DNA of 64,000 bases from IMG/VR virus record IMGVR_UViG_3300025728_000145, positions 3,944 through 67,943 of that record; one strand, written 5' to 3'. The DNA is from a virus. How positions within the stretch are numbered: position 1 is the first letter of the stretch; each line of letters opens with the position of its first letter. The position numbers and the translations under genes are program-made. Shown one piece after another: positions 2,645 to 54,400 of this stretch. The notes under the pieces are model-generated. The model was given only the letters and a program-made list of their open reading frames with translations, did no database searches and had not been told where the DNA came from.

Positions 2645-2773
2645 TACACTAAGATGCCCCCTCTTTATGAGGGGGTTTCTTGTGTTTGACAAGCGAATGA
2701 CAAACGTGTAAGTTTGTATCAAGATTTCATCAAGAAATCATCAAATCCACACTGAAAGGTCTCTCGCTATCTA

Positions 2774-12008: not shown

Positions 12009-12027
12009 AAAAGGATAAACTAAATTA

Positions 12028-12597: not shown

Positions 12598-13188
12598 ACT
12601 ATGACAAAGCAGACAATCCTCAGCGAGGCAAAGGTGGAAGTCCTTGACGCTCTGGAAGAACACCTAGGCGCAAAAGAGGTACGAGTAGCCAGCATCTCTG
12701 ACTATTACGACTACGGATTCCACATCGAAAGGACTCTGCATAACCTTCTAACGGGCTATGCGGAGTACAAGTACTTCCACTCCACCGAGCGTGCTGAACT
12801 AGAGCGACAGCAGCGCCTAGCCCGTGAAGAAGAGCTACGGGAGAGGTCCAAGGTCATCCGTGATAACATCATGATCGGTGTCCTGTCCAACATGACCATG
12901 AAGCTTCGGAAGTACTTCCCGGATTCGGCTATCGAGTTCAATCTGGGATCAGCTAGTAGCTGTGTATCCGTCAGCCGTACGATGGACCCGGATGATGAGA
13001 TGATGTTTATTGAATACTACAAGAACGACTCTCTCCAGAAGTATGAACTTACCGTCCACATTGACGGTGTAGGTCTTTGGGAAGATGACGTGACAGTGGT
13101 CAACGGGAACCAGCGACCGGCAGACCAATTCACAGGAATTGCTGGACTGGATGCCTACTTGGATACACTACCAAAGAAAGAAAACTAA

Positions 13189-33253: not shown

Positions 33254-35709
33254 TTGTGGGGGAGTATGTTAGGCTAAGGCTATGAAAACTATAAAGAACG
33301 TAATCGCAGGGATCATATCTCTTGTCCTGATTGGACTCGCTGTTGTCATGTGGGTTGTTGCGGCAACCTCAGGAATGTATCCACACATGATCTTCGTGTG
33401 CTGTGCTGTTACTGTCGTAGCCTTGGGGTTGTCGTGGACTGCCTTTCAAGTTGCTAAACTGTAGACAAGATAGAGAAGGAAAAGGAGAAGGTAATGGACA
33501 TCAAAAACAAGATTGAGTATGTGAAGTACTTCTATCAACCATGGGAAGAGCTTCTGTTCCGGTATGTTCTGGTACTGGACCTTGTAGGTGGTAAGGGGCG
33601 GATGGAGTTCGTTTCCCATAACCTTGACGAAGACGAGTTCTTGGAGCGGTGGGATGGTCTGAAAGATGAGCCTACCCTGAATAGGATAGAGTACTGCTCC
33701 TTCGATGGTCCTGATGATTGGAAGGTTTTCTAGATGTATGAACCGATGACAGAGAAAGAAGCTAAGAGGTTTGTTGCTGGAGTCGTGGGGTTCTTTATTG
33801 TAGCTATTACGATTATGTTCGTGGCCGTTTACAATGTGAGCGTTGCGAATAACCAGCCCAAGTATGATCGATGCACGGATGCAGGAGGTGTGGTCATGAA
33901 GGTGATCACCACTGTAGGTGCAGGAGGCAAGCTGGTCTGTGTGGACGAGAAGGCTCTTCTGGATGTTGACTTTGGTGATGGCAAGTGAGGCTAAACCCAA
34001 AGAAGAAGATTCGGAGAGAGGCGGACTGGGACTTGATTGGTCCGGTTGCCTGTCTGGTAATCGTTTCATGTGCATTCTTGGTAATCCTAGGGATTGTGTT
34101 GACTTGAGAAGGATGACAGCAGAGAGGTTAGGATTTTGACTAAGATTCCAGTAGGATTCGAAGTAAATACTCGGTCTGGAGAGCTACCATCAACACCCTA
34201 TGTGAAGCAGGAAGATGGTACGTGGAAGCCGAAGTATGTAAGTGGTAGGCCAACCAGTCCTACTACTCCACCAACAGACTGGGTTGATACATGGGTAACG
34301 ATTACCCCTGAAGCAACCTAAGATTCGGAGAAAATTTTGAAGGAGAATTTGAATGGCAATGAGCAAGGGCGACAAAGCAGTTATTGTTTTGGTGGCTATT
34401 TTGATGACGACGGTGGGTCTGGGGTTACTGTGCATGATGTGGCTATGCGCTATTTCATTGGGCTGGGTTATCGTGAACGTAGTTACTATGGCCTTTACCC
34501 TGCTGACACTGATCGGTCTGTTCTATGGCTGGAAGGTAGTCCTCACTTCTCTGGACTAGGTACAGTTGTTACCAGAGGGTTTGCATTCATCCGGATGTGG
34601 TCCACCCTTATAGGCTGGTCTCCTGCCTATCTGGAGGATGATTGGGAGAAGCCATACTGGCCTGTAAAATATTGTAAGTACACTGCACCGTCTTGGTATG
34701 GGAAGAAGCAGCGGCCTAGGGTTCGGAACTTCTGGAACTCCAAGTTTGATCCATGGTGGTTGTATCCTGTTGAGCATGGTCGGGGTAAGTCCCTTACGGA
34801 TTCTCTGTATGCAGGTGCAGGGTACAATGCCTACTCTGCGCGTAAAAAGTTTATGGGTAGGTTTTTATTTGGATATGACACCATCGGATCTTTTCAAATC
34901 AGCGAACCTAATCGCACGAAAGAAATGTACTCGCGCTGGCTTGCTGAAGATCATGGAAGCTAATAACAAAAGATGTCCAGTGTGTGAGAAGCCGGTGTTC
35001 TTTGCCTTGCACGCTCCGCAGGACAGTACACTACATGCGTGCTCGGATATTGACTGTGTGAATGCACACGGGATTGTAGACTGGGGAATGCCGAAAGAGA
35101 AGGAAAAGATGAAAGACATTGATGAGATTCAGGCTAAGAAGCGTCTGGGTGATGTACTGAACATAAAATATTTGAAAGGGAGCCATGAGCCAGACAATCA
35201 AGATTAGGTTGAAAGGGTACGGCGATAACGCACCAATGCGTGAGGTTGCTGAGATTGAAGTACCGCAAGGGTTTGCTTTGATCCAGTCTATGAAGATTGA
35301 GACTGTTGCGGGTAAGCCTTATCTGCTGGACAGTGTGGACATCAAATTTGATACGAGGCCCGTGGCGTAATGAGTGAGATGACTGAGCAAGAACAGGTAA
35401 AGGTTAGGGTCACTCGTGTTGTGGCGGATGCTGTTTATGATGCAACCTTGTACAACTGGTTTGCCCTAATGATAATAGGTATTCTCTTAGCCTTCAGTGT
35501 ATGGCCGTGGATCATTGGATTAGTGGTCCTGTTGAATTGGTTCTCTGCGGAATACTTCAAGGACAAGGCAGTGAAGAAAGCGGTTGACAAACTAATCTAA
35601 TTCGGTATAATAGAGGCATAGCTCTAGGAACCGTTATTTCTAGTGGTTGACACAGCGGTGATATACTATATGTAGTAGACACCAAGAAGTTCAACTCTAG
35701 GAAGTATCC

Positions 35710-36318
35710 ATGACAGTTTTCAATCCATTCGACCAAGACTCTATGCCGGAACCACCGGAGATCGAGGGTCAACCTGTCTCCCGTTCACCGAGTGCAGGTA
35801 AGACTTCTCCTGCCGAGCAAGGTCTAGAAATCCCTATGGGATGGAAGCCATCCATCATGGAACCAGTTCCGGTGATGCGCTGCACCGGCACCAGCAGTAC
35901 TACCGGAGAGAGATGCAGGAAGTGGTCTCTTCGAGGTACCACCGTCTGCAAGAATCACGGAGCACAGTTCCCCAGCGTACAGGAACATGCTAATGCCGTA
36001 GTAGAGTCTGCAAGGATGAGACTGTTCGGTATGGCTGACGACGCCGTTGAAGTGATGTACGACCTTATCCAAGAGGGTAAGTCAGATCAGATCAGGCTCA
36101 AAGCCGCTGAGAACATCCTGAACCGTGCAGGTATCAAGGATGCCATTGACATCAACGTTGAGGTCTCCCACAACGAGAACCCGTCAGACTCCATCTTGAA
36201 GCAACTCCAGATCATGCGGGAGCGTCAGGAAGCAGCTAAGAAAGAATCCGAACTAATTGATGAAGGAGAACACGATGAAGAGATCATTGATGCCGAAGAG
36301 AAGCCCGAAGAAAGCTAA
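35710..36318 (+). CDS. Putative terminase small subunit (HGGxSTG-like Zn finger plus helical domain)
   Basis: RCTGTSSTTGERCRKWSLRGTTVCKNHGA; SDQIRLKAAENILNRAG; acidic tail; strong TTGACA..TATACT promoter upstream. Confidence 0.55.
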   Translation: MTVFNPFDQDSMPEPPEIEGQPVSRSPSAGKTSPAEQGLEIPMGWKPSIMEPVPVMRCTGTSSTTGERCRKWSLRGTTVCKNHGAQFPSVQEHANAVVESARMRLFGMADDAVEVMYDLIQEGKSDQIRLKAAENILNRAGIKDAIDINVEVSHNENPSDSILKQLQIMRERQEAAKKESELIDEGEHDEEIIDAEEKPEES

Positions 36319-37230
36319 GCTTGATCCGTCCTATGAGAAAGCTTTGCTAGAGTACGTGCGAAAGCACTTCCCTCACATGCTTCTGAACAACCCTCCGGGT
36401 CCACGCAGGAAACGTCCTCCACGGGCAAATTAGCAACAAAACGCGCCTCTCCACGTCGTAAAATATTTCAACACACCGAAAGAGAACCAATGTCAACCCA
36501 CCACCTCTGTGTGAAATGCAACAAAAACTTCGCCGTAATCGGCCAAGACTACTGCCCTGTGCATGGAGGCGTGGTCCCCAAAACAATCAAAGAGTATGAA
36601 GAACTCCGAGACTCCAAGCTGATCACGGGAGCACAGTTTTACACGTCCCCCGGAGTCCCCGCCTTTACAGAGCAGACGGAGTCTGATAGACTATTAAAGT
36701 TGCGGGAGTACATCAGCAATCGACTGTCAGGTCTGTCCATGAATCCTCACTACATCGATCAGTATGACGAGGGATGGGTCACTGGAGTTTCCGACTCTTA
36801 CCGAGAAATCCTACGGATGATCGATTCCATGTACCCCAACCTCTAATCCTATCAGAAAGGCAAGAAAATCGCAAGAGCAAATACCCCACTCAATCCGGAG
36901 CCTGTCTACCGTGCCGTAGTCCTGTGGCATTATCCGGGCATGTACTACCCTCAGTCGGACTGGGAGATCAAGAGCGGATACGCGTCACGCCCACTACCTG
37001 ATGCTCAAACTTATATAGCCTATGATGAATCGGGTAATGAAAGAGAGATAGAGTATCACTCTTATATTTGCCGTGGCCCGTACTCCATGCCGGGACCGGC
37101 TAAGTCTCAGGTTACAGCAGCCGCACAGAGCCGGTGGAGTCCATCACATAATGACTACATAGTCTACGCCGAGGTGGAGGAATCCACAGGAGCTTGGAAC
37201 ACGAAGCCAAAGGGCGTAAAGTAGGTCCAG

Positions 37231-37474
37231 GAGGCTCTACCGGCCAGCAGTGATCCACGGTAGGGCCTCTTCCCCTGAGAACCAAACGGCTGTAGACTTA
37301 GCTTACCAGCATCCCGGAACGAACGGCTGAGATTCTGGAAAAGGGTCTCCCGGTTCACTGCCCCCCAGAGTGCCGGGAGGCCCCTACAACACAACTGAAT
37401 AACCTAGTGGGCACCGAACCTATCCGTAGGCTTGGCGCAAGCAGAAGACCCTCAGCCTAAACTGGGGGTCTTCT
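37231..37474 (+). ncRNA. Non-coding hairpin cluster
   Basis: Stems at 37231-69, 37342-85 and 37443-74; no RBS-led ORF. Confidence 0.4.
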
Positions 37475-37540
37475 CTTTGACGAGATGCCGTGATAAACTT
37501 TTTGAACCGAATCGACACGGTACACAGATAGATCCACAAA

Positions 37541-37572
37541 GAAAGACCCCTAGCGGGAACTAGGGGTCTTTC
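37541..37572. terminator. Bidirectional terminator
   Basis: aaaGAAAGACCCCTAG-cgggaa-CTAGGGGTCTTTCcttt at the 3' end of the minus-strand DGQHR gene. Confidence 0.85.
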
Positions 37573-37580
37573 CTTTGCCG

Positions 37581-39002
37581 TTAGGCTTCTACGCCGGGTG
37601 CCTTGTCAAGGTAGACCAGTTCGTAGAGCGTGGCGTAGAGTCCGGTGACTCCAGCGAAGCCTGCACCGTGAGAGGTCCACGGATTGCCGGGGCGCTTCTC
37701 CCAATCCACCTGACCGAGCTTGGAGACCTTTGCCGCAACTGCGGACCAGAACTCTTCCTCAGTGCGGGACTGCTCCAGAGCGCCAGAGAGGATGTCCTTG
37801 CCGAGCTTGGAGACGGAGCCGACACCAGCGAGGTTCTTGAGTTGGTACTTGACCTTCTCTTCCACCGGGTCTCCACCTTCGATAGGTACGACCAGTCGCG
37901 GACGTTCCTGCCATGCCGGGGCGCATGTACGGGCAACGAGTTCCCAGTACTTCTTGGCCACCTTCTCCAGCTTCAGCCCACGGTGCTCCAGACGGCCCAT
38001 CAACTGCTCAGGGAGCATGTTGCCGACCGAACGGCGCAGACCTTCATAGGATACCGGACGGTCCCGTTCCTGCGGCCCACCAGTCATGTTGACCAGACCG
38101 TACCAAACGGAGTCGCCATCTTCTGCCAGAGAGCGAGCGACCTCACGGACGATCTGTTCGTGTGCGGGGTTGCCCTGCTCCATGTGGACCTTTGTGGCCT
38201 CGATGAGAGCCTTGGGAAGCTTGCGCTGGTTGGTGTTGATGTCATCGAACAGCGTAGCTTCGTCCGTGTAGCGCAGACCGTAGTAGAGCATCACCGGAAC
38301 GTCCGGGTTGAAGTTGGCCTTGTTCTCCCATGCCCAGAACAGACCACCAGTGCGGTGCTGTCCGTCAACGATGGAGACAACGGAGGGGCCGAACTCCTTG
38401 TGGATACCCTTGATGTCTCCCTTGTTGAACAGGTGGTTGAACTTTGCCTTCTCCTTTTCGGAGTAGACGCGAACGGACGCGATGATCGGGGTGATCAAGT
38501 GAGCGTGCGTATGCTGCTCATCGGTCTCCTGAGAGTAGTACCGTCCGATTGCAGGGAAGCGAGCTTCGAGCGGATCGCGCTGATATCCGTTCTGCCGTGG
38601 TGAGGTGGACTGCTCATCCACCGAGTTGTATGTGGAGATGAACGCGAGTTCCTTCAGGGCATCAGGAGTCAGGGTAGCGAGTGCCGCCTTGCCAGCGACA
38701 AACTCCGACTCGATGACCATGCGGCGTTCCTTCTTTGCCTGTGATTCGGCGCGAGTTTCAAACTCCGGTTCCTTCGGCTCTGCGGCCTTACCTTCCGGAT
38801 CGGTTTCTTCCTTGGGGTTGTCCGAGAACATGGGCTTGACATCCGGTGCGGGTGCCGTGACCTTGGGAGCTTCCTCCGTAACTTCTTCGGTGACCGTTGC
38901 AGTTGCGGATTCCGCTGCTGCGATTTGTGCTGCTGCCTTCTCTGCGTTGGCCTTGCGGGTTGCCGCTGCCTTCTGTCCGCGAGTAAGAGTCTGAGTAGCC
39001 AT
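37581..39002 (-). CDS. DGQHR-domain protein (ParB/Srx/DndB superfamily)
   Basis: GYQR..R, SIVDGQHR, EATLFDDINTNQRKLPK motifs; Ala/Lys-rich N-terminal extension (KAAATRKANAEKAAA); GAAAGG RBS. Confidence 0.85.
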   Translation of the reverse strand: MATQTLTRGQKAAATRKANAEKAAAQIAAAESATATVTEEVTEEAPKVTAPAPDVKPMFSDNPKEETDPEGKAAEPKEPEFETRAESQAKKERRMVIESEFVAGKAALATLTPDALKELAFISTYNSVDEQSTSPRQNGYQRDPLEARFPAIGRYYSQETDEQHTHAHLITPIIASVRVYSEKEKAKFNHLFNKGDIKGIHKEFGPSVVSIVDGQHRTGGLFWAWENKANFNPDVPVMLYYGLRYTDEATLFDDINTNQRKLPKALIEATKVHMEQGNPAHEQIVREVARSLAEDGDSVWYGLVNMTGGPQERDRPVSYEGLRRSVGNMLPEQLMGRLEHRGLKLEKVAKKYWELVARTCAPAWQERPRLVVPIEGGDPVEEKVKYQLKNLAGVGSVSKLGKDILSGALEQSRTEEEFWSAVAAKVSKLGQVDWEKRPGNPWTSHGAGFAGVTGLYATLYELVYLDKAPGVEA

Positions 39003-39225
39003 GATAGTGATCCTTTCAATAGTCTATTTGAATGTTGTGTGGTAGCCCCTCCTTTCCGAGGTGGTTTCCATGTCTCAAACATTACGCCTCCTTTTCCAGT
39101 ATGACAAGTTGACTTTGAAAAATATTTTTCCTCTGGTAGGCGATTCCGCGTAATGCCGGGGCTGATCCTCAAAAAACAAGTAGTGCCGGTTTGCAAACTG
39201 AGTACTGCCGGGGTAGGATTGAAGC

Positions 39226-39420
39226 ATGAACCAGACCAAATATGCGGTAGGAGATCCTGTAAAGATCACTGCTGGTACCTATGCGGGTGCCGAAGGTGTC
39301 ATTGCGGATCTACAGCCTGAGTGTGATGCGGTGCGGTTAGAGACTAAAGAAGGCACTGCGTACTCATTCCTAGAGTCCATGGTGCCGCTGCCGAAGCCTA
39401 GGCCACCACGGCGTAAGTGA
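39226..39420 (+). CDS. KOW-motif protein, leaderless
   Basis: YAVGDPVKITAGTYAGAEGVI; TTGCAA..TAGGAT then ATG. Confidence 0.75.
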   Translation: MNQTKYAVGDPVKITAGTYAGAEGVIADLQPECDAVRLETKEGTAYSFLESMVPLPKPRPPRRK

Positions 39421-39579
39421 TGCAGACCACAACTGAATAACATGCGGTAAGGACTGGGGGCTTGCCGTACCGTAGCGTTACTCCCTTAGGAGTGGCGCTA
39501 CTTTCTTTTACCCAGACAACAATGCGGTTATGCAGATGCCGTGCCGATAGTGTTATTGGAGAGGATACATGCTCTAGAT

Positions 39580-39936
39580 ATGAAGGTCTCAATGTTCCGA
39601 GTAGAGAAGGCAAACGGTACGGGGCCGTATGTCCAACAGGAAGATCACCCGATGCTTACACACATGTATGCCGTTCACGGTGATTCCGATCATCCTGAGC
39701 CGTGGGATGATCCACTGCTTGAAACAATTTATCCCGACGAAGTATGCGGCTTCCCTACACTCTGTGCCGTAGAGGAATGGTTTGCCGGATACGAAGACCC
39801 TCTTGCCGAGTGCGGCTACAGCATCGTAGCCTACACGGTACCAATACATTCAGTACGATACGGTAAGCAACAGTCAGTATTCCTTAAGAAGGATGCGGTA
39901 CTTGTGCGGAGAATGCCGATGATAGGTCAGCCATGA
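39580..39936 (+). CDS. Hypothetical protein (FRVE..GPY..HPxP family), paralog of 42078
   Basis: GGAGAGG RBS; motifs shared with 42078..42467. Confidence 0.7.
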   Translation: MKVSMFRVEKANGTGPYVQQEDHPMLTHMYAVHGDSDHPEPWDDPLLETIYPDEVCGFPTLCAVEEWFAGYEDPLAECGYSIVAYTVPIHSVRYGKQQSVFLKKDAVLVRRMPMIGQP

Positions 39937-40023
39937 TAGAACGTCTCCTTGCCGCTCAGGATATGATACGGCTACTGCTAGGCAATGCGGATGCCAGAGA
40001 AGCAGATGCGGTTACCGCTCAGT

Positions 40024-40284
40024 TTGTAAAAGATGCGGTGCCGTGATAGACTGAACACCGTTCGATACACAATGATAAGAAGCCCTCCCGATTACCACTT
40101 GGGTCCTAGACCAGCGGGAGGGCTTTTGTGTGTCTTGACTTAGATGCGGTGCCGTGATAGAATGAGATGTATCAGGTAGGCGCTCTCCTTCCGAGCACCG
40201 AAGACCCTCTCGGCCAACAGTATGCCAGTACTGCGGGAGGGTCTTTCTTTTGCCCTTGACAATGCGGTTCCGTTACCATAGACT
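40024..40284 (+). promoter_or_regulatory. Three tandem sigma-70 promoters separated by terminators
   Basis: TTGTAA-17-TAGACT (40024), TTGACT-17-TAGAAT (40135), TTGACA-17-TAGACT (40256); 20-bp repeat AGATGCGGTGCCGTGATAGA; hairpins 40080-125 and 40201-245 with U-tracts. Confidence 0.8.
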
Positions 40285-40290
40285 AAGTAT

Positions 40291-40452
40291 ATGAACAGAG
40301 TAATCATTACCGCCATGGGTGACGATTCGTCATATGCTATTCTGCTGCTCACGGAGGAAGAGACTGCCGTAGCTCAGAAGATCGTTGACGCTTTCGAGCC
40401 TGACGGAAACTACGCACCGACAATCAAAATCGAAGTGAAGGAGATAAAATGA
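40291..40452 (+). CDS. Small leaderless protein (not in ORF track)
   Basis: ATG 6 nt after TAGACT; MNRVIITAMGDDSSYAILLL... Confidence 0.65.
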   Translation: MNRVIITAMGDDSSYAILLLTEEETAVAQKIVDAFEPDGNYAPTIKIEVKEIK

Positions 40453-41049
40453 TTTATCGAGACAACGACCCCCACACGCTCCGACAGATGCGGTACCGCC
40501 TCATGGACCGCGTTCGTGATCTTCTCCGGGCTTTGCGGGACAAGTAATGGACACCCGGCAAGTGACCCTAGAGAAGACCGAGACCGATGCGGTTGCCGTG
40601 AGGTACGGTAAATGCATCCTAGGTGCCGTAGCTAAGCTGCCGTTCCAAGATCTCTGGGCTGCTTACCATGACGGACGTCTAGTTGCTACGGCCAAGACCG
40701 ACTGGGCTGCGGCTTACGCACTTGCCACATGGTGCGGATACTGATAGTCTAAGGTTTACCAACTACTTAGGAGAGAACATGGAATACGAAAAGGCTTCAG
40801 ACATTCTTCAGAAGATGCATGACCGTACAGTTGCTGACGCTGAGAATAAAGAACAGCGGTTAGCTCAACTCAACGCGGAGTATGCGGCTGGTGACACCAG
40901 TACCGATACGATTGCGGGTATAAAACTTTTTACCTCCCGAGGTGTCAAGCTCCGTGCCGAAGCCGAGGCCCTAAACGTAGCTATCGAAGCCCTGTGGCGG
41001 CTTGAACAGTTGGACAAGTAAAATGTTTGAACGACTTCAGCCGCGAATC

Positions 41050-41083
41050 CAACCTCAACCTCAACCTCAACCTCAACCTCAAC
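41050..41083 (+). repeat. (CAACCT)5 microsatellite
   Basis: Five perfect hexamers plus CAAC just upstream of the GGAGG RBS of the gene starting at 41101. Confidence 0.9.
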
Positions 41084-42077
41084 AACCACAGGAGGAATCA
41101 ATGCGGTACCGAGACGTACTGTTCATAATCTTCTCGATTGCCCTGACCGCGTTCCTTCTGGTCTGTGCCTTCCGAGGTGGTCACATGATCTTTGACAACC
41201 TCGAAGACGACCGTAAGTACAACCAGCGACAGCAGCAAGCCCAAGAATGGGTAGATCACTGCCGACAAATCAAAGACGCGGAAGTATTTTCCGCCTGTAT
41301 TAAGGCGTACCGATGATCCCACTCCCAGACCTCGAACCGGAGACTCTTAAAACTTTTGAAGCTGCGGTAACGGAGTTGTTCCCGGACGCTACCTTCCGGC
41401 ACGTCGAGCAGACCATCATGGGTCCGCCGTACCTCATCATCTGGATACCGGATGAAACGTCAGTCGTCCCGATAACGCTGTGCATCGATGCGGGACAGGG
41501 ATTGCAGGGAGTTGACAAGGATGACCTTCGTGTCGTAGACTTGTAATACCAACCAACACAGGAGGAATCATGGCACAATCAGCGGAACACATTGCGGCGG
41601 ACAAAGATCACAAGCCCGTATGGGAAGGTGACGAAATCTACGATTGCTCAGTATGTGGACTAGCCGTTATGTCAGACGGACGGAACCACGGATTTGATAG
41701 TGACTACGATGTACAGGAGAAGAAGTAATGGCTCGCCGTTCATACGAAACACTCGCCCGTGATCTTGCCAAGGAGAAAGGAATCTCCGTACAGGTAGAAG
41801 TAGACAACGGGCGTGACTTCTCCGTAGAGATCTGGGCGTTCAATGCACATCAAAACTTTGATGATGCTCACACCAACATCCCAAGCATGGAAGGCTACGG
41901 CCTGAAGTCACCGGCTGCGGTGTGGAGGCAGGTCTACGAAGACTTGCAGCAGTACGAAACATGCCCACTGGACTGTCGCTGCTACGAATAAAACTTTTAG
42001 AACGGGTCACCTTGACAGGTGGCTCGTTCTTTTTGTATGCTGGAGCCGTACTGATAAAAACTTACAAGGGGAGAGAT

Positions 42078-42467
42078 TTGAAGACTGTTACTGTATACCG
42101 TGTCGAGCACAAGGAGAAAGGACACGGCCCGTACCTTGACAGGAATGGCATCTTCAGGGGCGTATCCGGACTGCACACAGCACATGAACGATCCCCTCAG
42201 CACCCCGGACCACGACAAGACGGGCTGGGTTGGGATGTTTACGGCAAGTCCTTTGCCTTCCCTGACCGCGAGCGCATGGACTGGTGGTTCAAAGATTTCA
42301 AGCACAAGCTCAACCGTGAAGGATTCGTCGTAAACATTTACGAGGTGGGTGAAGAACACACGACCGTAAGTGAAAGTGGCAAGCAAGTCATCTTCGAAAA
42401 AGATCAAGCCAAGCTGGTTGACACGCAAAGTGTCATAGGGTATAGTAAATATTACCAAACCAACTAG
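42078..42467 (+). CDS. Hypothetical protein, paralog of 39580
   Basis: TTG start; VYRVE..GPY..HPGP..FAF..WWF..GF..KQVIF. Confidence 0.75.
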   Translation: MKTVTVYRVEHKEKGHGPYLDRNGIFRGVSGLHTAHERSPQHPGPRQDGLGWDVYGKSFAFPDRERMDWWFKDFKHKLNREGFVVNIYEVGEEHTTVSESGKQVIFEKDQAKLVDTQSVIGYSKYYQTN

Positions 42468-44441
42468 GAGGAAATCATGGCAAAGGTAATGACCAGCGTA
42501 CAGAACATGTCAGATGCACTGGAGTTCGCAACCAACAGCATGGACGAACGACTGGGTGGCCGAGTGGACGCTGTTGGACACATCGGTAAGTTGCTGACCG
42601 GAGTGTACGACGCTGACCAACTGGACGGCATCCAGAACGAAATCTTCGCAGAAGCTTCGAAAGACTACCGTGAAGGTTACGAAGAAATGTGGAACACCAT
42701 CTACACCAAAGCCGTAGGATTCTAGGAGGAATCATGGAAAAGTCAGAGCCGTTCACCATCACAACGATCATCACTTTCGATGACCAGAACGAACCACAGG
42801 CGGTGACCGTTGAAAACTTTGGTGGAATGCCACGATCAGCCGTAAGGGCAATCTGTGAGGAAGCACTTGACCGACACTTTGGGCGCGGAGCGATTGAATA
42901 CAGCGTCAACACCTCATCGGTTGAGGCATTCGAACAGGCAGATGACTTCGTAGTATTTGAAGTTCGTAAGCTGGTCTAAAAACTTTGAAGGTCCGGACTT
43001 GCATCCGGACCTTTACTGTTATAGACTATTGTTATCAGCCAAACAGGAGGAATCATGGCAACGGTAAAAATCGGAGACATCAGCCGTAACGGTCTGTACC
43101 AGATCACAGACACCAATTGGGACAGCAATGGCACCATGAAGGTTACTGTTCGCGAACTCATCGGAGAGCGGGAGATTCCAAAAGACCGCCTTGAAGCAAT
43201 GCGAAGGTTTGCCCGTCGCGCACTTCCGGAGTACCGTAAAGGTCAGACTCGCGGTGCCCGTACCATTCGAACATGGTATGCAGATGGATGCAGCCGCGCA
43301 ACATTCGCAGTCACCCGTAACGAACGGTAGTTGACAACGGGATGAAAGTCCCATAGACTAAGTACATACCAACCGGAACAAGTCCTAGGAGGACAAAATG
43401 AGCAAGTACACTCACGAAGAGAACCGCATGTCACTTCAAGCGATCACCCTCCAAGCTTTCGAAGCAGGATTGCTGAAAGAGAACCAGCGTCTCTACTACG
43501 ACAAGGGCAACGGTAACTACGCTGTACCTACTCGGATCAAGGTCGAAGAGTTCAACGAAGAGACTCAGAAGTGGGAATACATCAGCCACCCTGCATGGGT
43601 TCCTGAGTTCACCTACAAGGACGGACCAACCGCAGTAGGTAAGGTGCTCACTGGAGTAGCCAACGTCCTCTGGGCCGTCATCATGAACAAGCGCCAAGCA
43701 GAACTGGACGAACTCCGGAAGTAAAAATTTTATGTCGCTCCGCTTGACACCAACAAGCGGGGCGGCATAAGATGGTTACACCAACGAAGTCCACAGGAGG
43801 ACAGCATGAAACTTTTCACAGTCACGATGAGCGTCAACAACAATCTTCTTTCTGTACCCATTAATCAGGTTCAGGGATTTGGAGAACACTCCCCCACCCA
43901 AGGCTTCATCTTTATGGGGACAAAGACGGTGACCACAAAGGAGAGCTATTCGACTCTCGTAGAAATGTGGAACGACTTGACAGGTGAGTCCGAGTAGCTT
44001 AGACTATAGTTACCAACGAAGTCCTAGGAGGACACAATGCGCATCACGCACAAAACCCTGAAAGCACTTCTCGAAGACCTGAAAGCTGTCGAGAACCGCG
44101 AAGGTGACTACCTCGCAGCACTTGACTCAGCGGTAAGCACTGTTGAGGAATGGGTCGAAGTATCCGCACCTGATCCATCCGAGGGGACACGCTACTACTC
44201 GGACGACTTCTTGGACTACGAAGAGTCGAAGCCCTACGGTGATGACACAGCCCGAATCATCGACATTCACGCTGGTGTCATTGCCTACTCACACAAGGGC
44301 AACGCGGCAGACATCTGCCAAGCTCTGGAAGTCAATCCGCTCTCACAGTACAAAGACGAACGGTAAAACTTTTAGGTAGTGGGTTTGCAATCGTAGGCCC
44401 ACTACCTTAGACTAGAACTACCAACCACACAGGAGGACAAA

Positions 44442-44753
44442 ATGTCTGTAGCACTTGAAACCGCAGTATCCATCGACGCAATTGAAGAAGCTCTCGTTGA
44501 AGCGGGAATGTATCCTGAGTACGTCGGAGAAGACGACGGCACGACGTTCACCATCACCTACGGTGACAAGGAGATTCAGATTTTCAACGCAGTCAGCGGT
44601 GACTCGTTTGTAGCCGAAAATCTTTCATCGGCCAGCTACTACTTTGGGATCATCGGCAAGGACGTTACACGGGCTTTTGAGGACGTGGAGACTCTGGAAG
44701 AGTTCATGGCCGCAGTTCGGGACTGCATGGAAGCGAACTTCATGCCACGCTAA
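44442..44753 (+). CDS. Acidic early-region protein
   Basis: Own promoter and RBS; D/E-rich. Confidence 0.8.
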   Translation: MSVALETAVSIDAIEEALVEAGMYPEYVGEDDGTTFTITYGDKEIQIFNAVSGDSFVAENLSSASYYFGIIGKDVTRAFEDVETLEEFMAAVRDCMEANFMPR

Positions 44754-44848
44754 AAGAATTTAAACTATCGGCCCTTGTCAGTTGACAGGGGCCATTAGTT
44801 TGTCATAGACTATAGTTACCAACACAGCAACAGTCCTAGGAGGACAAA

Positions 44849-45496
44849 ATGAGCGGGTTCACAATGGCAGACTTCAACATCACCGTAGATGAAGAGACCG
44901 GCCACCGGGTTGCCAAGTTCGCAGTAGACTCCAACATGCTGCCCGTAGAACAGCCGGACATGTACAGCACCTACAACGGTGACTACTTCACTGAGCGCTA
45001 CCTCGAAAATATGGAAGAGGACGGACAGCCGGGAGACTATGACGCCTACGACTGGAAGTACGATTCCTCCGCAGTGTGCAGGAAACTCAGTGAGGTGGGA
45101 GCACAGGATGTCGTTAATCAGCTTTCGTCGGAGGGAATCATCCGTAGTGTTGAGGTGGAAAGCACATGGTCACCTCGTGAATATAACTTTGCAACGGACA
45201 GCTACAAAGCAGTCTGGGAGTTCGATCTTGATCTTCTGGAAGCATGGGCAAAAGAAAATAGGTTCAACGACTCCGAGTACGTCAAGAAATATCACAGCAG
45301 CTACGACGGATTCATGTCCTATGTAGAAGATTGGATGGAAGATGAGCGGTATGTTGAGGGGTCAACACTTTGGCTCACACTGGCCGCTTACCTCCGGATG
45401 AACCTTGATCTGGTACAGCAAGAGGAATCTATGCGAGAGGTCGAGTATGAAGCATGGGATGAGACCACCACGATCACACTGAAAACAGAAGACTAA
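44849..45496 (+). CDS. Highly acidic, aromatic-rich early-region protein
   Basis: Own promoter and RBS; WSPREYNFATD, HSSYDGFMSY motifs. Confidence 0.85.
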   Translation: MSGFTMADFNITVDEETGHRVAKFAVDSNMLPVEQPDMYSTYNGDYFTERYLENMEEDGQPGDYDAYDWKYDSSAVCRKLSEVGAQDVVNQLSSEGIIRSVEVESTWSPREYNFATDSYKAVWEFDLDLLEAWAKENRFNDSEYVKKYHSSYDGFMSYVEDWMEDERYVEGSTLWLTLAAYLRMNLDLVQQEESMREVEYEAWDETTTITLKTED

Positions 45497-45876
45497 AAAC
45501 TTTTAGAGCGGTCCTTGACAGGGCCGCTCTAACTGTTTTAGACTGTAGTTACCAACAAAGCCTAGGAGGGCAATCATGGAAAAGGAACTTACACTCGAAC
45601 AGGCTCAAGAGTTTGTAAAGACTCGCGACGGCTACGGTTCCACTCGACTTTATGGAATCATTGCGGACGGTGATTTCGCTGGACAGACTGTGGCAATCAA
45701 GTCCACCTATCACCTCGAACGGTACACCTACTCTCGTATCTACACAAAGTCCACAACCATTACCGATATCGTCGGTAAGGCATAGTCACAAAAGTTTTTC
45801 TCTACCGGACTTGCATAGAGTAAGTAAGTCCGGTAGAGTAGGTACTACCAACAAGGAAACGTCCTAGGAGGACAAA

Positions 45877-46287
45877 ATGATTATCACCGGAATCACAGTT
45901 CAGGAACTCATCGACGTAGTAGCAAAGCTCAACGCCGAAAGCTACAACGGCAACATCGTGATTGAGCGGGTAGAAGCACTATCCGCAACGGGTACGCGTA
46001 TCTCAGCAAAGCTGGGAACGAATGACAGCCGTGCTCACGGGTCACGCAGGTCAGCATCAGGCCGTCACGGCAAGTACCTTTGCTGGCACGGTTTCCGCGA
46101 CGTTTACCGCGCTTGCTTTGCGGTCAACCCTGCTGCACGTATCAAGTCCGGTCAGGTCGTCTACCGTGGCGCACAGCACTTCGAGGACACCTACGAGACG
46201 ACGGCGTACCAGAACATCGGGTCGATGGTTTCACCAACTTACATGCCCGAATGCTGCGTAGGAACCTGCAACGGCGACTTCGAATAA
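45877..46287 (+). CDS. Hypothetical early-region protein
   Basis: Own promoter and RBS; CWHG motif and C-terminal Cys cluster. Confidence 0.8.
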   Translation: MIITGITVQELIDVVAKLNAESYNGNIVIERVEALSATGTRISAKLGTNDSRAHGSRRSASGRHGKYLCWHGFRDVYRACFAVNPAARIKSGQVVYRGAQHFEDTYETTAYQNIGSMVSPTYMPECCVGTCNGDFE

Positions 46288-47482
46288 AAACTTTTCGTGG
46301 AGGGGTTGACGAAAGTCCCCCTCCACGATAGACTTTCATTAACAGCACAAACAACCAACAAAGGAGAAACACAATGCTGAAGCTCATTGAAAACGGCTGG
46401 AAGCTCGAACCCATCAACGGCAACTCCGGCGTGTACGTCGCAAGCCGTGGAGATTCCAACATCGTCTACGTCACCAACATTTGGGGCGAACTGGAACGGC
46501 GCTCGCAGAACTTCAAGAATCGCTTCGACGCACGGAATGAAGCGAAAGACATCGCCCGAGAGTTCGCAACACTCTAACCACTTCAAAAGTTTTACGTCTG
46601 GGAGGACACCATGGCTACACCGAAAGTCATCACCGCACTGATCGAAGACCGAGACAACTGGAAGGTAGGGGAAACTCCCTTCAAGGTCGAACTGAAAGGT
46701 CAAGCCGTTCCGGAAATCAAAGCCAAGCGGGTACAGAACTTGGCTACAGGAGCATTGTCGGTACAGATCATTGCACCCGTCACGTTCGCACTCTCGACAC
46801 TGGACAAGATTGCCCAGAACATCCTGACAGGCGCGAAGGTGCGAGAGTACCGAAAGGGTTCGGTCATCGTTCGGGAGTACAGCCGATGAGCTACATTGTA
46901 GTCAGGGCCGCAGAGAACGAGCGGACACGCCAGACCCTCGAACGGTACTTGTACGAAGGTCAGAAGATCGTAGGTGAGCCGGTAAGGTCCGAATTTGATT
47001 CACAATACTTTATCGTGGACACCGGAACGAACGATACCTACCGCAGCCAGTACATCACGGATCGCCTGAACTCAGGGCCGTTCGGTGCGAAGCTGTTCAC
47101 CAGTCTTCCAGAAGCTGAACTCTACATTCAGCGGGAACTCCGATAACTTCAAAAAACTTTTAGCCTAGGGTTGCGCGGTTGCGTTACCCTAGGCTATAGT
47201 TGTTTCAAGAGCAGGAACCGAAACGAAGAAAGGTAAGGCCATGAAAACGACTTGCAGCACAGAAGGACACTACTTCTACCGGACACTGAACACAGTAGCC
47301 CACAAGTGCACTTACTGCGCTGCACGTCGCTGGCCGTGGACACGCGAAAGCGTAGCTTCACTTCGAGCGGTAGCCGTTCTTCGACTGGCCTCAAAGAATC
47401 CAGCTTTTGCAGCAAAGTTGCTCAAAGCAAATTGATAGTGTAAACTGAGAGAGTAATATCCAGTCTAGTGAAAGGAACCGCC

Positions 47483-48130
47483 ATGCTGAAAGCATTAGGA
47501 GTGGCCGCAGTAATTGCGCTCGCAGGAACCACGGCTGCACCAGCCCAAGCTGCTGTGGCACCCGTGACACTGGCACCAGTCGCCGTAGCATCTACCGTAG
47601 CTGTTGAAGCTGCACCGGACGCTGTAGTGACGTTTGAAAGTCCCGAGGTAGAAACTGTCGCTGCACCAGAAGAAGTAACCCCAGTGGTTGCTGAACCTGT
47701 TGTAACCGAACCAGTTACAGAGCCTACAACGGAACCGACACCGGAGCCGGTAACGATCTTGCCAACTCCAGTAGCACCTGTTGAAAATATTTCAACGCCA
47801 ACAGTTGGGGGAACTGTGACAGAAGAAGCAACACCCGAGGTAGTTGAGGAACCGGCAACGGTGCCCGAAACTCCCGCCGAACCACCAGTAATCGAGGAAC
47901 CTGTGGTAACACCCGAAGACACAACCGCAATTGAAATGTTTGAAGGAACGAGCGAAGACTTCAAGCCCGAAGGCGGAACGTACATCGGAACCTACAAGGG
48001 TCCAAAAGATATCTGGACAGGTGAAGGCAAGGTTGCTGTAAAGGGCACCATGACGACCACAGTTGACGGTAATCCCAACAACATGGCCGAAAGTAACATC
48101 CTTTACTTCTGGCACGTCTACACCATCTAA
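47483..48130 (+). CDS. Secreted Pro/Thr/Glu/Val-rich protein
   Basis: Signal peptide ending AQA; low-complexity EPVVTEPVTEPTTEPTPEP linker. Confidence 0.75.
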   Translation: MLKALGVAAVIALAGTTAAPAQAAVAPVTLAPVAVASTVAVEAAPDAVVTFESPEVETVAAPEEVTPVVAEPVVTEPVTEPTTEPTPEPVTILPTPVAPVENISTPTVGGTVTEEATPEVVEEPATVPETPAEPPVIEEPVVTPEDTTAIEMFEGTSEDFKPEGGTYIGTYKGPKDIWTGEGKVAVKGTMTTTVDGNPNNMAESNILYFWHVYTI

Positions 48131-49662: not shown

Positions 49663-51428
49663 CTAGAGTTCATCCTGCTGAAATGTCCAGTATCCTAGTG
49701 ACTTACCTGAATCGTCACGATTCTTGATCTTGGTCCATCCCCTGTCGTCAAGCTGGTCTACTGAATCTTGACCGCCGAGACGAAGCACCCGTTCGTATGC
49801 TTCATTGTTCTGCATGTCGGCCATGCGGCGCTTAGCGAGTTCCGCGTATTCACCGTTGATTGCCGGAGTGTAGAAGAGCTTCATTTCAGTTCCTTTGTTC
49901 GTTGTTCCTGCTGATAAAACAAGACTACGGCCTAACTCTCGTGGAGTCAAGCCGTAGTCTAAGAAAGTTTTTGATTAGTTGGTGGAGAGGATCTGGATTA
50001 CGAGAGTGTCTGAGGTGAGGCCGGTCTTGAAGCCACGGACGAAGTTGGTGTTAGCTGCGGCGACCATTGCAGCACCGTCGTAAGCGAGAGACAGGAACTT
50101 GAGGTATTCGTTGGTCTCGGTAACGTCATCGAGGTCTACAACGAAGATATCGTTAGCCTTGAGTTCGCCAACAGTGGTGAAGTGGACCTGAGCGGAGTTT
50201 GCAGACATTTTCGGTTCCTTTAGTTGTTTCTTGCTGATGTAGATAGTCTATGGGGTGTTTGGGCAAAAGTAAAGCCCTACCGGAGTAGGGCTTCAAAGTT
50301 TTTACAGGGTTTCAAAATCTTCCGAGTCAAGCTCGAACGGGTGAGTTCCGCCATTCACTGTGTAGTCCGACTGTCCGGACCTATCCGTCTGGCTGTAGCG
50401 CTCGCAGTCTCCAACTTCAAGGATAAGGGGGTAGGTTCCGTATGTGTCTACGTGAGATTCGATTGTTTCATAGGCCGTGACGTCATAGCCTGCAACAGTG
50501 ACGACAGAACCAGACTTGACGACATCAATGTACCCGTTTTCATCTTCAACTTCAAGGTCAATCATGAGCTTGATCTGTGAGCCAATGGCTGGGATGTTCA
50601 GGGATTCCATGTTTTCATTCCTTTGTTCGTTGCTGATGTATCTAGTCTAAGGTCTTTGTTGGCGGGTGTCAAGCTGGGATGAAAAGTTTTTGAGCAAAAG
50701 AAAAGGCCCCGTAGGGCCTATCCTTAGTTGTTCGGGAATCGGGAGTCAAATTCTTCATCTGGAAGAATGGTCCACACGGGTTCAGCTTCCCGGCACTCTG
50801 TGCAGTAGGTTGTGGGGCCGTCGTCTGCACCGTAGCTGAAAACGTCGTGTTCGCCAGTTTCCGTGCAGATGGAGCCGGTACGGTCCTTAGTTGCGAAGTG
50901 TGCCATTTTCTTTCCTTTGTTTGTTCCTGCTGTTGATACAAGTCTAGGGCATAGCCGCGTGGATTGCAACCATGCCCTAGAAAAGTTTTTTGATTAGTCG
51001 TTTTCAGTCTGGCACTGCGGGTAGCTCCACATGTTCCATTCGGAGCCGTGATCGTGTGCGAAATACTCTGCGGAGCACTCATCGATGATCCCAGTGGCGT
51101 GTGCTACCTCATGGAGCAGGATGTGAGCGCCCTCAGGGGTGTTGTAGACCTGCGGTGAGACAATCACAGCAGTGTATCCCTCAACAGTAAGGAACGTGCA
51201 GCCACCGCCCGTACCAGTGGGGCTGATCTTAGAGCCACAGTTCTGATCCTCAGTGAAGAACAGGCGAGTGTTGGCAGGGAGTGACAGGCCAGCCTTGTCA
51301 AGGACACCCTGTTCCCAGCTAACTACCTGAGTGACAGGTGAAGGAGCAGGAGTCTCAACCTCAGCAACCTGAGAGGGGAAGAGGCCAGCAAAGATAGAGA
51401 CGATGAGGGCGAAGATTGAGGCGTACAT
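49663..51428 (-). other. Five minus-strand monocistronic genes, each with its own promoter
   Basis: ORFs with lower coordinates 49663, 49975, 50302, 50724 and 50994; each preceded by AAAACTTT..TTG/TTT-17-TAGACT/TAGTCT and an AAC..AAAGGA leader. Confidence 0.85.
50994..51428 (-). CDS. Secreted/membrane HEXXH metallopeptidase-like protein
   Basis: N-terminal hydrophobic signal; ILLHEVAHATGIIDECSAEYFA. Confidence 0.7.
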   Translation of the reverse strand: MYASIFALIVSIFAGLFPSQVAEVETPAPSPVTQVVSWEQGVLDKAGLSLPANTRLFFTEDQNCGSKISPTGTGGGCTFLTVEGYTAVIVSPQVYNTPEGAHILLHEVAHATGIIDECSAEYFAHDHGSEWNMWSYPQCQTEND

Positions 51429-54400
51429 TGTGTGTCCTTTGTTCGTTGGTATGTAGATAGTCTATGACACATAGAGGTATGAGTCAACTCATGACAAAGA
51501 AATCTTTTGAGAAAAGTTTTCATGACTCATTGAGTGAAATGTCTTGACAATATGAATCAAAAAGAATATTCGCGTGTGTATGCACGTGGATGCATAGGTA
51601 AAAAGTTTTAAAATATTTTATTTGAGCATTTGACTTGATTGGGTGGATTGTGGTAGGCTAAGGGTATGCGGAGGCTTTCTCGAAACTTTTAGGGGTGCCA
51701 CCTCAGACTGAGCACTAGGTCGCTCACCGAAATAGCTAAAAAATACTTAACATACCGATTTGCACCTTTAAGTAAACCATGCTAAACTATCAAAAACCAC
51801 CAACCTAAGGAGAACCAATGTCTTTCGCTTCAGACCTTCACGCCCAATACGTCACCCTCATGGAGCAATACGAACTCAAAGTCGAACGCCTTGTAGACAG
51901 GTGGATCGAGATTCAGGTCCAGATGGGTAAGCTGAACTCCGAAGCCATCCATCAATTCTTCATTCCGTATGAGTTTAGCCACGATGACACCAAGCTTGGA
52001 TTCAGGACTCTTGACCCTGAACAGGACTATTACGGAGCAAAAATCATCTACATCCCAACTGCATACTTCGAAGACCAAACCCCTTACGAAGAAGCCCTGA
52101 AGAACCACCTAGATCAGGTCGAGAAGAACAAGCAGTCCGCCAAGCGCCGCATGACACAGCAGCAAGTCGATTCCCTTGAACGCCAACTCGCCCAAGCCAA
52201 GGCCCAACTTGCGGGAATCCCAAAGAACGGATAGACTCTCCCCATGAATACACGAGTCTCCCGCCAAATCCAGCAAATGGCTTCAGCCCTGAACTGCACC
52301 TACAAGGTTGCCCAACTCTTCCGGCACCTCCACGTCAAGGCAAAGAAACTTCAAACACAGATAGACAAGCAAGCAGAGCAGATCAATTTCCTCACCGATC
52401 TTCTCCGAAACAACGAAGTACACGAGTCCACCTGTTCGATCCCACGAGCAATCGCGCATAACCGTCTGGGTATGTCCTACATGATCCCTCAGCCCTGTGA
52501 CTGCTGGCTCTCGGTTGACATCTCAGACACCACCCTGTAGACTGTCCGTATGGAATCCCAAGACTCTGCGCTCTTCAGCGCCCTCAATCAAGAACTGCAC
52601 TTCCTTCGGCGTATCATCTTCGCCAACCGCCTTCATGAGCCGGATTGCACTGCCTTCTCCCCACCTGAGAACTCAGGATTTCCTTTTGCATCCTTTGGTC
52701 GTTCATACTGTGACTGCTGGATTTCCCGCAACAACCCGGAACCAGACCCGACCAAGGGCTACGCGATCTACGAGAAGGCCACGGAAAGCCTCGAAAACAT
52801 CCTTTTCCGGTCCCGAGCCGCCGCAGTTGACTATCTCACGGAAGAATATGGCTTCTCGCGGGACTCAAAGTCCGATAGGTACTGGGAAAATACGTATCTC
52901 GTTATCGAAGCCAAGGCAAAAGAGGTAGAACCACCTCCCACGTCCTTCAAAATCATGCCCAAGCGATACGGAGCGCCCTCATGGACCGGAGAAACCATCC
53001 ATCCGACTCGTGAAGCAGCCATTGAAGAGCTAACAAAAGACAAAAACCTCCACTCCACCCACGAAATGGCCGATAAGTACTGGGGCCACACGTGGAACAT
53101 CGTAGAAAACAAGGAGAATTAATGAAAATCAAGATCAAAGACCTTGAAACCTTCGCAACAGACCTCGAAGAGATGTATGGTACCATGGAACGCCTCTCAA
53201 ATAAGGGTATCCCATCGGAACATTCCGTTTATCAAGACCTTCTGGAGGCCACAATCCAGATGAACATCGAACTCATCCCCGACGAACCGGAAATCCCACA
53301 ATCCAAGACCCACATTGGATGGATTATCTGGTACAACCCCGGATCAAGGCAGTCTTTTGAGTTTGACGAGCTATACAGCAGTAAAGAGTCAGCCCAACTC
53401 GATATTGATCAGGTCAATAAGGCGTATCCACAAGAGGCCGACGACAACAAGTACTCAATCAAGGAAGTTTTCATCTAAATGGCACTCATCCCACCTTCAG
53501 AAACCCCGATTTATGACGAACTTGCCACAAAATACAACGCCAAGGCGCTCTATGAGCAGGTTTTCGTAGCAACCGACGAAGATCTCCCTCCGATTGAGCC
53601 TCTGGGAGTCAACATTGGCACGAACTGATCCCATTATGCTTACTCCCGTCCAACGATATCTCTCTGCCCTTGCCCGTATGGCCGAATTGGCCGAAAATGA
53701 CCAAGAACTTCCCGCAGCAGAGACCGTCATCCACCTGAACTCGATGCTGACCGCCTGTGCTGAGCTTATCCGGGAAAATGACCTTCTCAGCGCCCAACTG
53801 CGTTCCGCAGACACCTACATCGCAGAACTTGAGATCGATAACGCCGTAAAGGACATCGAAATCTTCAATTTTGACAGCACAAAGGGCCAAAATGAGTAAA
53901 AATTACGAAGAAAAGGAAAAGAATGACTAACCTCACCCCTCAGCAAATCCTCGCCATCCCCATGCAGGACAACGACGCCAAGGCCAAGACCATCTACCAG
54001 TACCTCCAAGCTATTTCGCGTAGGGTCTGGATCGAGAGTGAAGGATTCTCTGGTAAGCGTCCGTTCGGCAACTCCGGATGGGAGCATGATCTTTACATTG
54101 CTCTCGCCAAGGCTGGGGCCATTCAGTCTGAATACGATGAGGAAATAGAAGAGTTTACCGACTACGATACCTCAACCGCTGACATCCTCATTAATCAGGC
54201 TCTCGACTTCCTAGAAAACGCAGACCCTCTCTCCATCCAGCTTCCTCCGGAGCCTACAGAGTACTGGGTTGCCCGACTAATTGTGGAGTCAGGACACGAA
54301 GATTACGGTCCTGCTCTCTGGGGGCCGTTCACGGAAAAAGAAGCCAAAGTACGACTAATTGAGAAGCAAAGGCTCCTATCAAAAATGACCTATAAGGTTC

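Follow-up and report, generated by a model that had tools for sequence, protein, structure and literature searches.

The element described here is a field of the pentamer TGCSG (S being C or G) that is carried predominantly by one strand of a 64,000-nucleotide stretch of viral DNA (positions 3,944 to 67,943 of the IMG/VR virus record IMGVR_UViG_3300025728_000145), referred to throughout as the window. The window is part of a 67.9-kb contig with an estimated completeness of 39%. Four phages of Arthrobacter globiformis with genomes of ∼193-194 kb (Racecar, Talia1610, Mimi, and Atuin) are its relatives in the phage collection. The window thus represents part of the genome, ∼170-195 kb in length, of a Racecar-like siphophage of the Arthrobacter type, in a clade of large T5-like actinophages widespread in soil. 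The field runs across the operon of an end-proximal gene (gp1), a gene for a DGQHR-domain protein on the opposite strand, the divergent phrog_1106 partner of that gene, a 64-amino acid open reading frame (ORF), and the first early promoter-like elements (Table 1).

The Racecar record bears a perfect direct terminal repeat of 20,468 bp that begins ∼50-120 bp upstream of gene 1 and has its first 6 kb occupied by the Racecar array. By synteny, the first part of the window (1-35 kb) matches the Racecar right arm and the DNA from 52 kb onward matches the left arm, with 49.7-50.6 kb corresponding to the last genes of the repeat. The gene at 35710, which encodes gp1, is the homologue of gene 1 in Racecar and Atuin, and the left boundary of the terminal repeat in the window phage is predicted from these alignments at ∼35600, at a perfect sigma-70-type promoter. 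A preliminary description of the window had suggested a packaging recognition zone near a genome end; the homology to gene 1 sustains the location near an end.

Table 1. Positions of the features discussed, in the window unless another genome is named, with TGCSG counts
Feature	Position	Strand	Remarks
Low-density tail of the field	35000-37299	+	∼14 forward, 4 reverse in 35001-37500; covers gp1 operon
Sigma-70-type promoter, perfect TTGACA-16-TATAAT	35584-35611	+	Racecar repeat start aligns here, ∼35600
gp1, end-proximal protein	35710-36318	+	Invariant C58, C69, C80, H83; helical part weakly similar to small terminase; candidate binder of the field
Core of the polar TGCSG field	37300-41650	+	73 forward, 3 reverse; peak 38.5-41 kb
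DGQHR-domain gene (DndB-family, ParB/Srx-like)	37581-39002	-	Crossed antisense by the field, 19 sites
64-amino acid ORF, sub-threshold KOW motif	39226-39420	+	8 TGCSG in 195 nt
phrog_1106 gene, conserved divergent partner of DGQHR gene	39541-39936	+	10 TGCSG
Three early promoter-like elements, TGCSG in spacers	40024-40284	+	Scan lists 40135-40163 and 40256-40284
Early small-gene cassettes past the field	42000-48000	+	2 forward, 22 reverse
Racecar	first 6 kb		87 forward, 14 reverse
Atuin	first 6 kb		95 forward, 16 reverse
L009	last 3.3 kb		56 forward, 8 reverse
L010	densest 5 kb		76 forward, 3 reverse
L011	densest 5 kb		68 forward, 6 reverse
L012	densest 5 kb		39 forward, 7 reverse
L013	densest 5 kb		45 forward, 13 reverse
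L163	last 1.4 kb		39 forward, 2 reverse
L157 compact block	12392-12766	forward	33 sites, 379 bp
L164 compact block	2731-3125	forward	37 sites, 399 bp
L156 compact block	2841-3078	forward	20 sites, 242 bp

Density and polarity of the TGCSG field

In the interval 39154-41597, the + strand carries 51 copies of TGCSG (28 TGCGG and 23 TGCCG), and the reverse complements amount to 0 CCGCA and 2 CGGCA, in agreement with the ∼50 forward and ∼2 reverse copies counted by hand in the preliminary description. The ∼5 copies expected there were likewise matched by dinucleotide-preserving shuffles (n = 500), which gave 5.3 ± 2.3 copies and a maximum of 13. The array had been thought to start just upstream of the DGQHR gene; the field actually traverses that gene from ∼37300, and its tail reaches ∼35 kb. 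For the complete core (37300-41650), dinucleotide-preserving shuffles predicted 10.6 ± 3.2 forward and 8.7 ± 2.9 reverse copies, and ∼5.3 copies were predicted from the remainder of the window; the one-strand enrichment of the field is 7- to 14-fold. When all 5- and 6-mers were compared in 3-kb intervals, no other word of the 64 kb formed a local one-strand cluster that came close to TGCSG in strength.

The field crosses coding sequences in varied frames and intergenic DNA alike, as previously noted: the density is 16.1 per kb in coding sequence versus 18.7 per kb outside it, and all reading frames are used. In synonymous-codon shuffles, which preserve both the protein and the codon usage, the excess persisted in the DGQHR gene (19 sites versus 6.7 ± 2.1, with 19 reached in 0 of 1000 shuffles) and in the coding sequence at 39541-39936 (10 sites versus 4.0, with 10 reached in 0 of 1000). 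In the smaller coding sequences of the field, the excess was individually not significant. The synonymous-codon and dinucleotide shuffles together rule out a codon or composition artifact.

The spacing between copies in the window revealed only the 3-nt periodicity of coding DNA and no regular direct-repeat step. Doublets 5-6 bp apart are in excess (24 pairs, three arrays summed), and these, rather than the ∼20-bp intervals remarked on earlier, are the only other spacing that stood out. Helical phasing was absent from the window, Racecar, and L009. The flanks of 534 sites from eight genomes hold ≤0.14 bit per position; the repeat unit of the dispersed arrays is therefore the pentamer itself, and a longer hidden motif around it is ruled out. 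Given the 73 forward versus 3 reverse copies, the field contains no inverted pairs and its sites are non-palindromic.

At the right edge of the array (41.2-42.7 kb), inspection of the repeats and the sequence for a special site disclosed nothing notable. A 31-mer at ∼41050-41082 has a depth of 95 in the sequencing run X1, and contigs break there, which indicates that it is shared with other DNA of the sample. Past 42 kb, the reverse word predominates in the window, as had been suspected, but the same bias is inconsistent across relatives, where 77 forward versus 137 reverse copies were obtained as a sum over seven non-independent genomes, two of which are unbiased. A second, weaker one-strand cluster is formed by ATCCCA in 51000-54000 (9 copies versus ∼0.5 expected, 0 reverse complements); it is situated around the putative right boundary of the terminal repeat, and its copies are scattered with no register. 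The literature searched, with supplementary files outside its reach, held no account of the TGCSG array.

Conservation, rearrangement, and a compact form in related phages

The same word in the same polarity was found in nine of nine large relatives with enough sequence, a comparison that among the four cultured Arthrobacter phages covered Racecar and Atuin. The presence of the same field in the relatives marks it as a real DNA signal. In Racecar, the field has a thin tail that stretches over the start of the repeat, from -4 kb to +2 kb, and in both the Racecar and Atuin records the part that crosses the record end is this sparse tail alone; the Racecar DNA between 21 and 170 kb contains 341 forward and 389 reverse copies. 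Only 14-16 of ∼50 sites per genome (∼30%) were shared in position in a three-way alignment of genomes with 61-65% nucleotide identity. That site number and polarity are kept while the sites themselves turn over indicates selection on the field and not on particular sites, and the cis-acting platform envisaged in the preliminary description is upheld to this extent.

A natural rearrangement is seen in two genomes, G002 (171.7 kb, 99% complete) and G003, in which the early cassettes directly follow gp1. Here, the dense core forms a block with the DGQHR gene, its phrog_1106 partner, and the KOW-motif ORF. This block is found ∼27 kb from gp1 in inverted orientation, and the genes that adjoin it have their homologues at the far end of the repeat predicted for the window. 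The polarity of the word is inverted along with the block, and a weak forward excess remains near gp1. The resulting polarity is mirrored relative to the nearest predicted repeat boundary and is still that of the sense strand of the following early genes. This rearrangement fits a polar function related either to the end or to the transcription unit and, with two arrangements only, is weak evidence for either.

Three further loci (L156, L157, and L164) contain a compact form of the array. The word in these blocks is (A)TGCGGT, with some TGCCG, and every copy is forward. Steps of 14-15 bp are the commonest, additional copies are displaced by 5-6 bp, and the intervening sequences are unrelated. 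That the register is kept while the spacers are free points to side-by-side protein binding. All three blocks are non-coding, lie ∼2.2-2.7 kb downstream of the gp1 start, and are followed after 75-165 bp by a strong rightward promoter with the -10 element TATACT. The L156 and L164 contigs end 557 and 54 bp upstream of gp1, respectively, which places their blocks 2.7-2.8 kb from the contig end. The compact block is likely the original form of the field. In L157, an HNH-endonuclease-like ORF with a C-terminal helix-turn-helix (11888-12385) ends 7 bp before the block; it is absent from this place in L156 and thus looks like a mobile insertion.

The TGCSG field is, on this evidence, a real, conserved, and polar cis element of the left-end/early region, of which the window holds the dispersed variant. 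No comparable array was seen in Microbacterium phage Megan and Gordonia phage Phendrix, both of which have a gp1-like gene, and locus L167 showed a TGCSG bias of 35:11 only. Clusters of AGAAG in L158 and of CGCAA in L169 were considered as alternative arrays and rejected, being scattered in apparently coding sequence.

Genes within and beside the field

The DGQHR protein matched Pfam PF14072 (E = 3.4e-10) and TIGR03187 (87.6 bits versus a cut-off of 58.85). TIGR03187 was the only such model passed, the equivalogs DpdB (28.9 bits, cut-off 300) and DGQHR_dnd_1 (32.4 bits, cut-off 450) falling far short. A link to 7-deazaguanine modification (Dpd) was ruled out, as Racecar has no TGT/DpdA-family gene. 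The predicted structure of the protein is a poor model (predicted local distance difference test (pLDDT) score of 64.7), and Foldseek found no match at E ≤ 0.001 in the PDB; ParB-like chains appeared only at ranks 10 and 32 with E ∼1. A sequence search of the PDB returned nothing relevant. The N-terminal part of the protein (38593-38961) is Ala/Thr-rich, of low complexity, and unmatched in array-less homologues, and within the gene the word is densest in the DNA that encodes it, at 11 sites in 370 bp; this N terminus seems to have been shaped by the DNA signal. Between the gp1 operon and the stop codon of the DGQHR gene, two terminator-like hairpins were read by eye. Antisense read-through into the gene is therefore not favored, and a signal read in RNA through the DGQHR gene is disfavored for the same reason.

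In nine of nine dispersed-array genomes, the dense core is centered on the 5′ end of the DGQHR gene with its orientation relative to the gene kept. All of the dispersed-array loci save L163 were retrieved with the DGQHR protein as query, so the co-occurrence of array and gene is partly by construction, and the search was accordingly repeated with gp1 as query (253 DGQHR and 108 gp1 homologues were obtained). Array and gene were found to occur independently of each other. The array is present without the gene in L157, which belongs to G008 (158.6 kb, 91% complete), in L156 of the fragment G007, and on the 4.1-kb contig L164; a DGQHR domain model run over the whole records found no match in G008 and G007 and did match the positive controls G002 and G006. 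Conversely, eight of eight more distant loci (L014-L021, 44-64% protein identity) have the DGQHR gene and no array, with the phrog_1106 partner kept in six of eight. Such array-less loci include three complete or near-complete (94-100%) phages of 56-61 kb, and no other polar words were found in them. A faint forward excess of TGCSG around the DGQHR gene is nevertheless discernible in array-less phages (59 versus 32, six related loci summed).

The 64-amino acid ORF contains a KOW motif below threshold (PF00467, E = 0.0011, 19.2 bits versus a cut-off of 22.3). All eight dispersed-array genomes whose sequence covers its position contain the ORF, namely Racecar (as gp6), Atuin (at 3340-3498, where it is unannotated), L009-L013, and L163; in the array-less DGQHR loci, it was not detected. 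As a free KOW domain, its product could interfere with NusG partners. The phrog_1106 gene, of unknown function, has a paralogue at 41922-42467 (PHROG 1106, E ∼2e-23 for each), and its pairing with the DGQHR gene occurs in small phages of 56-61 kb too.

The preliminary description had placed TGCSG copies in three promoter spacers at 40024-40284, and this proved correct with the qualification that two of the promoters are listed by the promoter scan and the third, at ∼40024 (TTGTAA-17-TAGACT), is weaker, unlisted, and read by eye. An exact 18-mer repeat at 40033 and 40144 falls inside two of the three elements. Downstream of the field are many small genes, each with a TTGACA-17/18-TAGACT promoter, an arrangement reminiscent of the regions that T5 and SPO1 devote to early host takeover. 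At 41999-42041, 44770-44811, and 45503-45544, the -35 TTGACA of the next promoter sits in the loop of the preceding terminator-like hairpin, so terminator and promoter are fused as one element.

gp1 is the only gene found to be common to dispersed- and compact-array genomes where a search was possible, and the field lies 1-3 kb downstream of it in 10 of 12 array genomes, the exceptions being G002 and G003. Many actinophages have a homologue of gp1 close to an end of their record. Of 17 contigs of at least 4 kb, 5 start with gp1, which points inward and lies within 600 bp of the contig end, and in four isolates the match begins at record position 28-119. Among 26 family members, 25 match phrog_3678 (unknown function), and weak small-terminase hits were obtained to phrog_2538 (11 members) and phrog_10899 (5 members). 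Comparison of the predicted gp1 structure with BFVD yielded uncharacterized actinophage proteins and a “WRC protein,” with small terminases at E > 0.1 only. Beside gp1, the ORF at 36490-36846 contains a Cys...Cys...Cys-Pro-x-His-Gly-Gly motif similar to that of gp1 and may encode a second zinc-ribbon protein of the gp1 kind.

Candidate functions of the field

Iterons and centromeres of the parC and parH type are familiar direct-repeat arrays, and the compact blocks resemble them in having 20-37 direct repeats with a 14-15-bp step in non-coding DNA beside a promoter. By contrast, the copy number of the field is much higher, the window form is irregular and lies in coding DNA, and none of the genes beside it was identified as an initiator or partition gene. 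In T7, the short repeat arrays SRL and SRR are situated beside the terminal repeat and are followed by the early promoters A1-A3; they comprise about a dozen copies, within a few hundred bp of the end and with no genes between, and their function is unsettled. The field shares with them the order of genome end, short direct repeats, and a cluster of strong host-type early promoters. The injection-stop region (iss) of T5 is also a cis-acting, repeat-rich region in an early-gene-bearing long terminal repeat of a T5-like siphophage. It occupies the inner edge of that repeat and is composed of long repeats, palindromes, and eight DnaA boxes (10.1101/866236), whereas the field is a single 5-7-nt word that recurs on one strand and lies 2-6 kb in from the outer edge. 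For one-strand nicks of the T5 type, which might conceivably fall at the word, the accessible part of the BF23 paper gives no nick sequence (PMC10644984).

The explanation that we tentatively prefer, as a possibility short of a probability, is that the field comprises cis-acting direct-repeat protein-binding sites of the iteron kind in the left-end/early region of a long terminal repeat. In the lineage of the window, the word would have spread with fixed polarity across 4-6 kb of genes and spacers on either side of a DGQHR module inserted there, its copy number staying similar or rising. A phage DNA-binding protein would coat the field directionally, the best candidate being gp1 with its C3H zinc finger and small-terminase-like helical domain, and the coated field would make the terminal repeat polar, which would serve recognition in packaging or the handling of the end that enters. 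The array itself, its polarity, conservation, site turnover, and compact form, and its independence from the DGQHR gene are observed; binding by a protein, the identity of that protein, and the process served are what we infer.

A number of observations weigh against this proposal. The similarity of gp1 to Terminase_2 in the ESM Atlas is below the bar (score 0.81, template modeling (TM) score 0.34-0.38), a Pfam search with gp1 gave no match, and its predicted structure is poor (pLDDT 63.1). The consensus host-type promoter that precedes gp1 would suit an early protein more than a subunit of the terminase, and gp1 is present without an array in G009, L169, L171, L173, and phage Megan. The dense core of G002 and G003 moves with the DGQHR module and lies 27 kb away from gp1. 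The dense core begins 2-3 kb inside the end, which is far for a terminase cleavage site. Contig depths in X1, the probable source run, were flat at 7.2-9.7 over 33.5-53.4 kb with no doubling of the predicted repeat; the assembled contigs on which these values are based are blind to ends and nicks. Finally, the irregular spacing in the window and flanks of ≤0.14 bit would be explained by a tracking enzyme that reads the word no less well than by a protein lattice.

Control of early transcription or of DNA entry, in which bound repeats would block, stall, or activate the first early promoters or halt DNA transfer, as has been proposed for iss, is a somewhat unlikely alternative; its promoter part corresponds to the operator field for early promoters that the preliminary description had offered. 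It would account for the strong TATACT promoter that closely follows the compact block in three of three cases, for the occurrence of TGCSG in promoter spacers at the start of the early region, three in all, and its absence from later ones, and for the constant placement of the word on the sense strand of the following early unit, also in the inverted G002/G003 block; T5 provides a precedent in the repeat region with eight DnaA boxes of its left terminal repeat (accessible part of 10.1101/866236). However, 70-100 sites across 4-6 kb of coding DNA, some of them antisense in the DGQHR gene, are far above the need of a promoter operator, >10 later early promoters are without the word, and the field lies at 2-6 kb of a ∼16-20-kb repeat and not at the inner edge, as iss does. 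These phages, moreover, are not known to transfer their DNA in two steps. Unlikely, too, is a replication origin or priming zone, made up of initiator iterons or dense one-strand primase starts that are placed next to strong promoters a few kb from an end, with synthesis running inward. Regular-register direct repeats beside strong promoters are a property of iteron origins, the strict polarity of a pure pentamer without flank information is reminiscent of primase recognition words such as those of T7 and T4, and the mirrored polarity in G002/G003 would again direct synthesis inward. Set against this, 20-100 copies greatly exceed the numbers known for iterons, the neighbors of the field include no recognized initiator gene, and the minimum of the cumulative GC skew in Racecar is near 142 kb, away from the field.

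The remaining explanations involve proteins that travel along, or load onto, DNA. TGCSG, or its complement 5′-CSGCA-3′ on the strand with its 3′ end at the nearest terminus, could in principle be a Chi-like signal, read by a helicase-nuclease coming from the genome end such that degradation stops and RecA-type recombination of the terminal repeats starts; we consider this improbable. According to Zheng et al. (2025), phage LLS (20 of 23) and Pseudomonas phage MD8 (32 of 32) have co-oriented Chi sites that cluster at one end, and recombination of the P1 terminal repeats requires RecBCD (PMC12315714). Like the terminal Chi of these phages, TGCSG is a short over-represented word in one orientation near one end, in genic and intergenic DNA; the polarity, irregular spacing, equal coding and non-coding density, turnover, and rarity of inverted copies in the window clade would all suit such a signal, as would a polarity fixed relative to the nearest verified or predicted end and mirrored in G002/G003. 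Yet the Chi of these phages is an 8-mer found genome-wide at 0.5 per kb, and the field is a 5-mer at 17 per kb confined to 4-6 kb. The 14-15-bp register of the compact relatives is needless for a tracking enzyme and favors side-by-side binding to duplex DNA, and the phages of the window clade have recombination genes of their own (Racecar annotation), which the Chi-rich lambdoid phages of that account lack (PMC12315714). In addition, the word has no replication-strand skew over 400 kb on each side of dnaA in the complete chromosome of Arthrobacter sp. G001, which served as a proxy for the host of the window phage: TGCGG occurs 1737 times on the leading versus 1726 on the lagging strand (fraction 0.502, skew rank 466 of 512) and TGCCG 2746 versus 2649 times (0.509, rank 209 of 512). 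The observed/expected ratios in G001 are only 1.12 and 1.09, respectively, and a host of this kind abounds in the word, with 5.6 copies per kb per strand. No Chi was described for AdnAB in the literature searched. The most leading-skewed words of G001 are GGGGGAG (114 versus 21, fraction 0.84) and GGTGCTG (329 versus 194, 0.63), which are candidates for FtsK-orienting polar sequence (KOPS)-like and Chi-like signals of Arthrobacter.

A related and distinctly unlikely explanation is that the field serves as a directional landing strip, a one-strand KOPS- or Chi-like code private to the clade and read by a DNA motor. The motor would be a phage helicase-nuclease or a translocase delivered with the virion, for example the ∼2,700-amino acid annotated helicase of Racecar; after a short first transfer of the end, it would load and then reel in or process the 170-195-kb genome in the direction of the word, and the compact and dispersed architectures would be two spellings of one polar signal. 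The 8.1-kb gene for this helicase (Racecar record 35379-43508) lies among the head genes, between those for the portal and the capsid protease, and its product could therefore be virion-carried. Very improbable, finally, is the parS-like loading or operator field for the DGQHR/DndB-family ParB-fold protein that had been put forward in the preliminary description. The presence of a ParB/Srx-fold gene inside the field, the centering of the dense core on its 5′ end even after the G002/G003 inversion, and the faint excess at array-less loci speak for it, but the sites are non-palindromic, and array and gene each occur alone, so this reading appears largely refuted at the level of sequence comparison.

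Phages with long terminal repeats of the T5 and SPO1 kind are common, and the DNA signals that organize their ends are largely unknown. Cultured members of the present clade (Racecar, Atuin, Mimi, and Talia1610 on A. globiformis) make binding, deletion, and inversion tests feasible. In the dispersed form, a DNA-level signal seems to override coding sequence and to shape the DGQHR N terminus and the 64-amino acid ORF. End signals of this sort would govern packaging, first-step entry, early transcription, and recombination of the repeats, and the clade offers a clear one: a single short word, on one strand, in 20-100 copies, in two architectures, and with a natural mirrored relocation.

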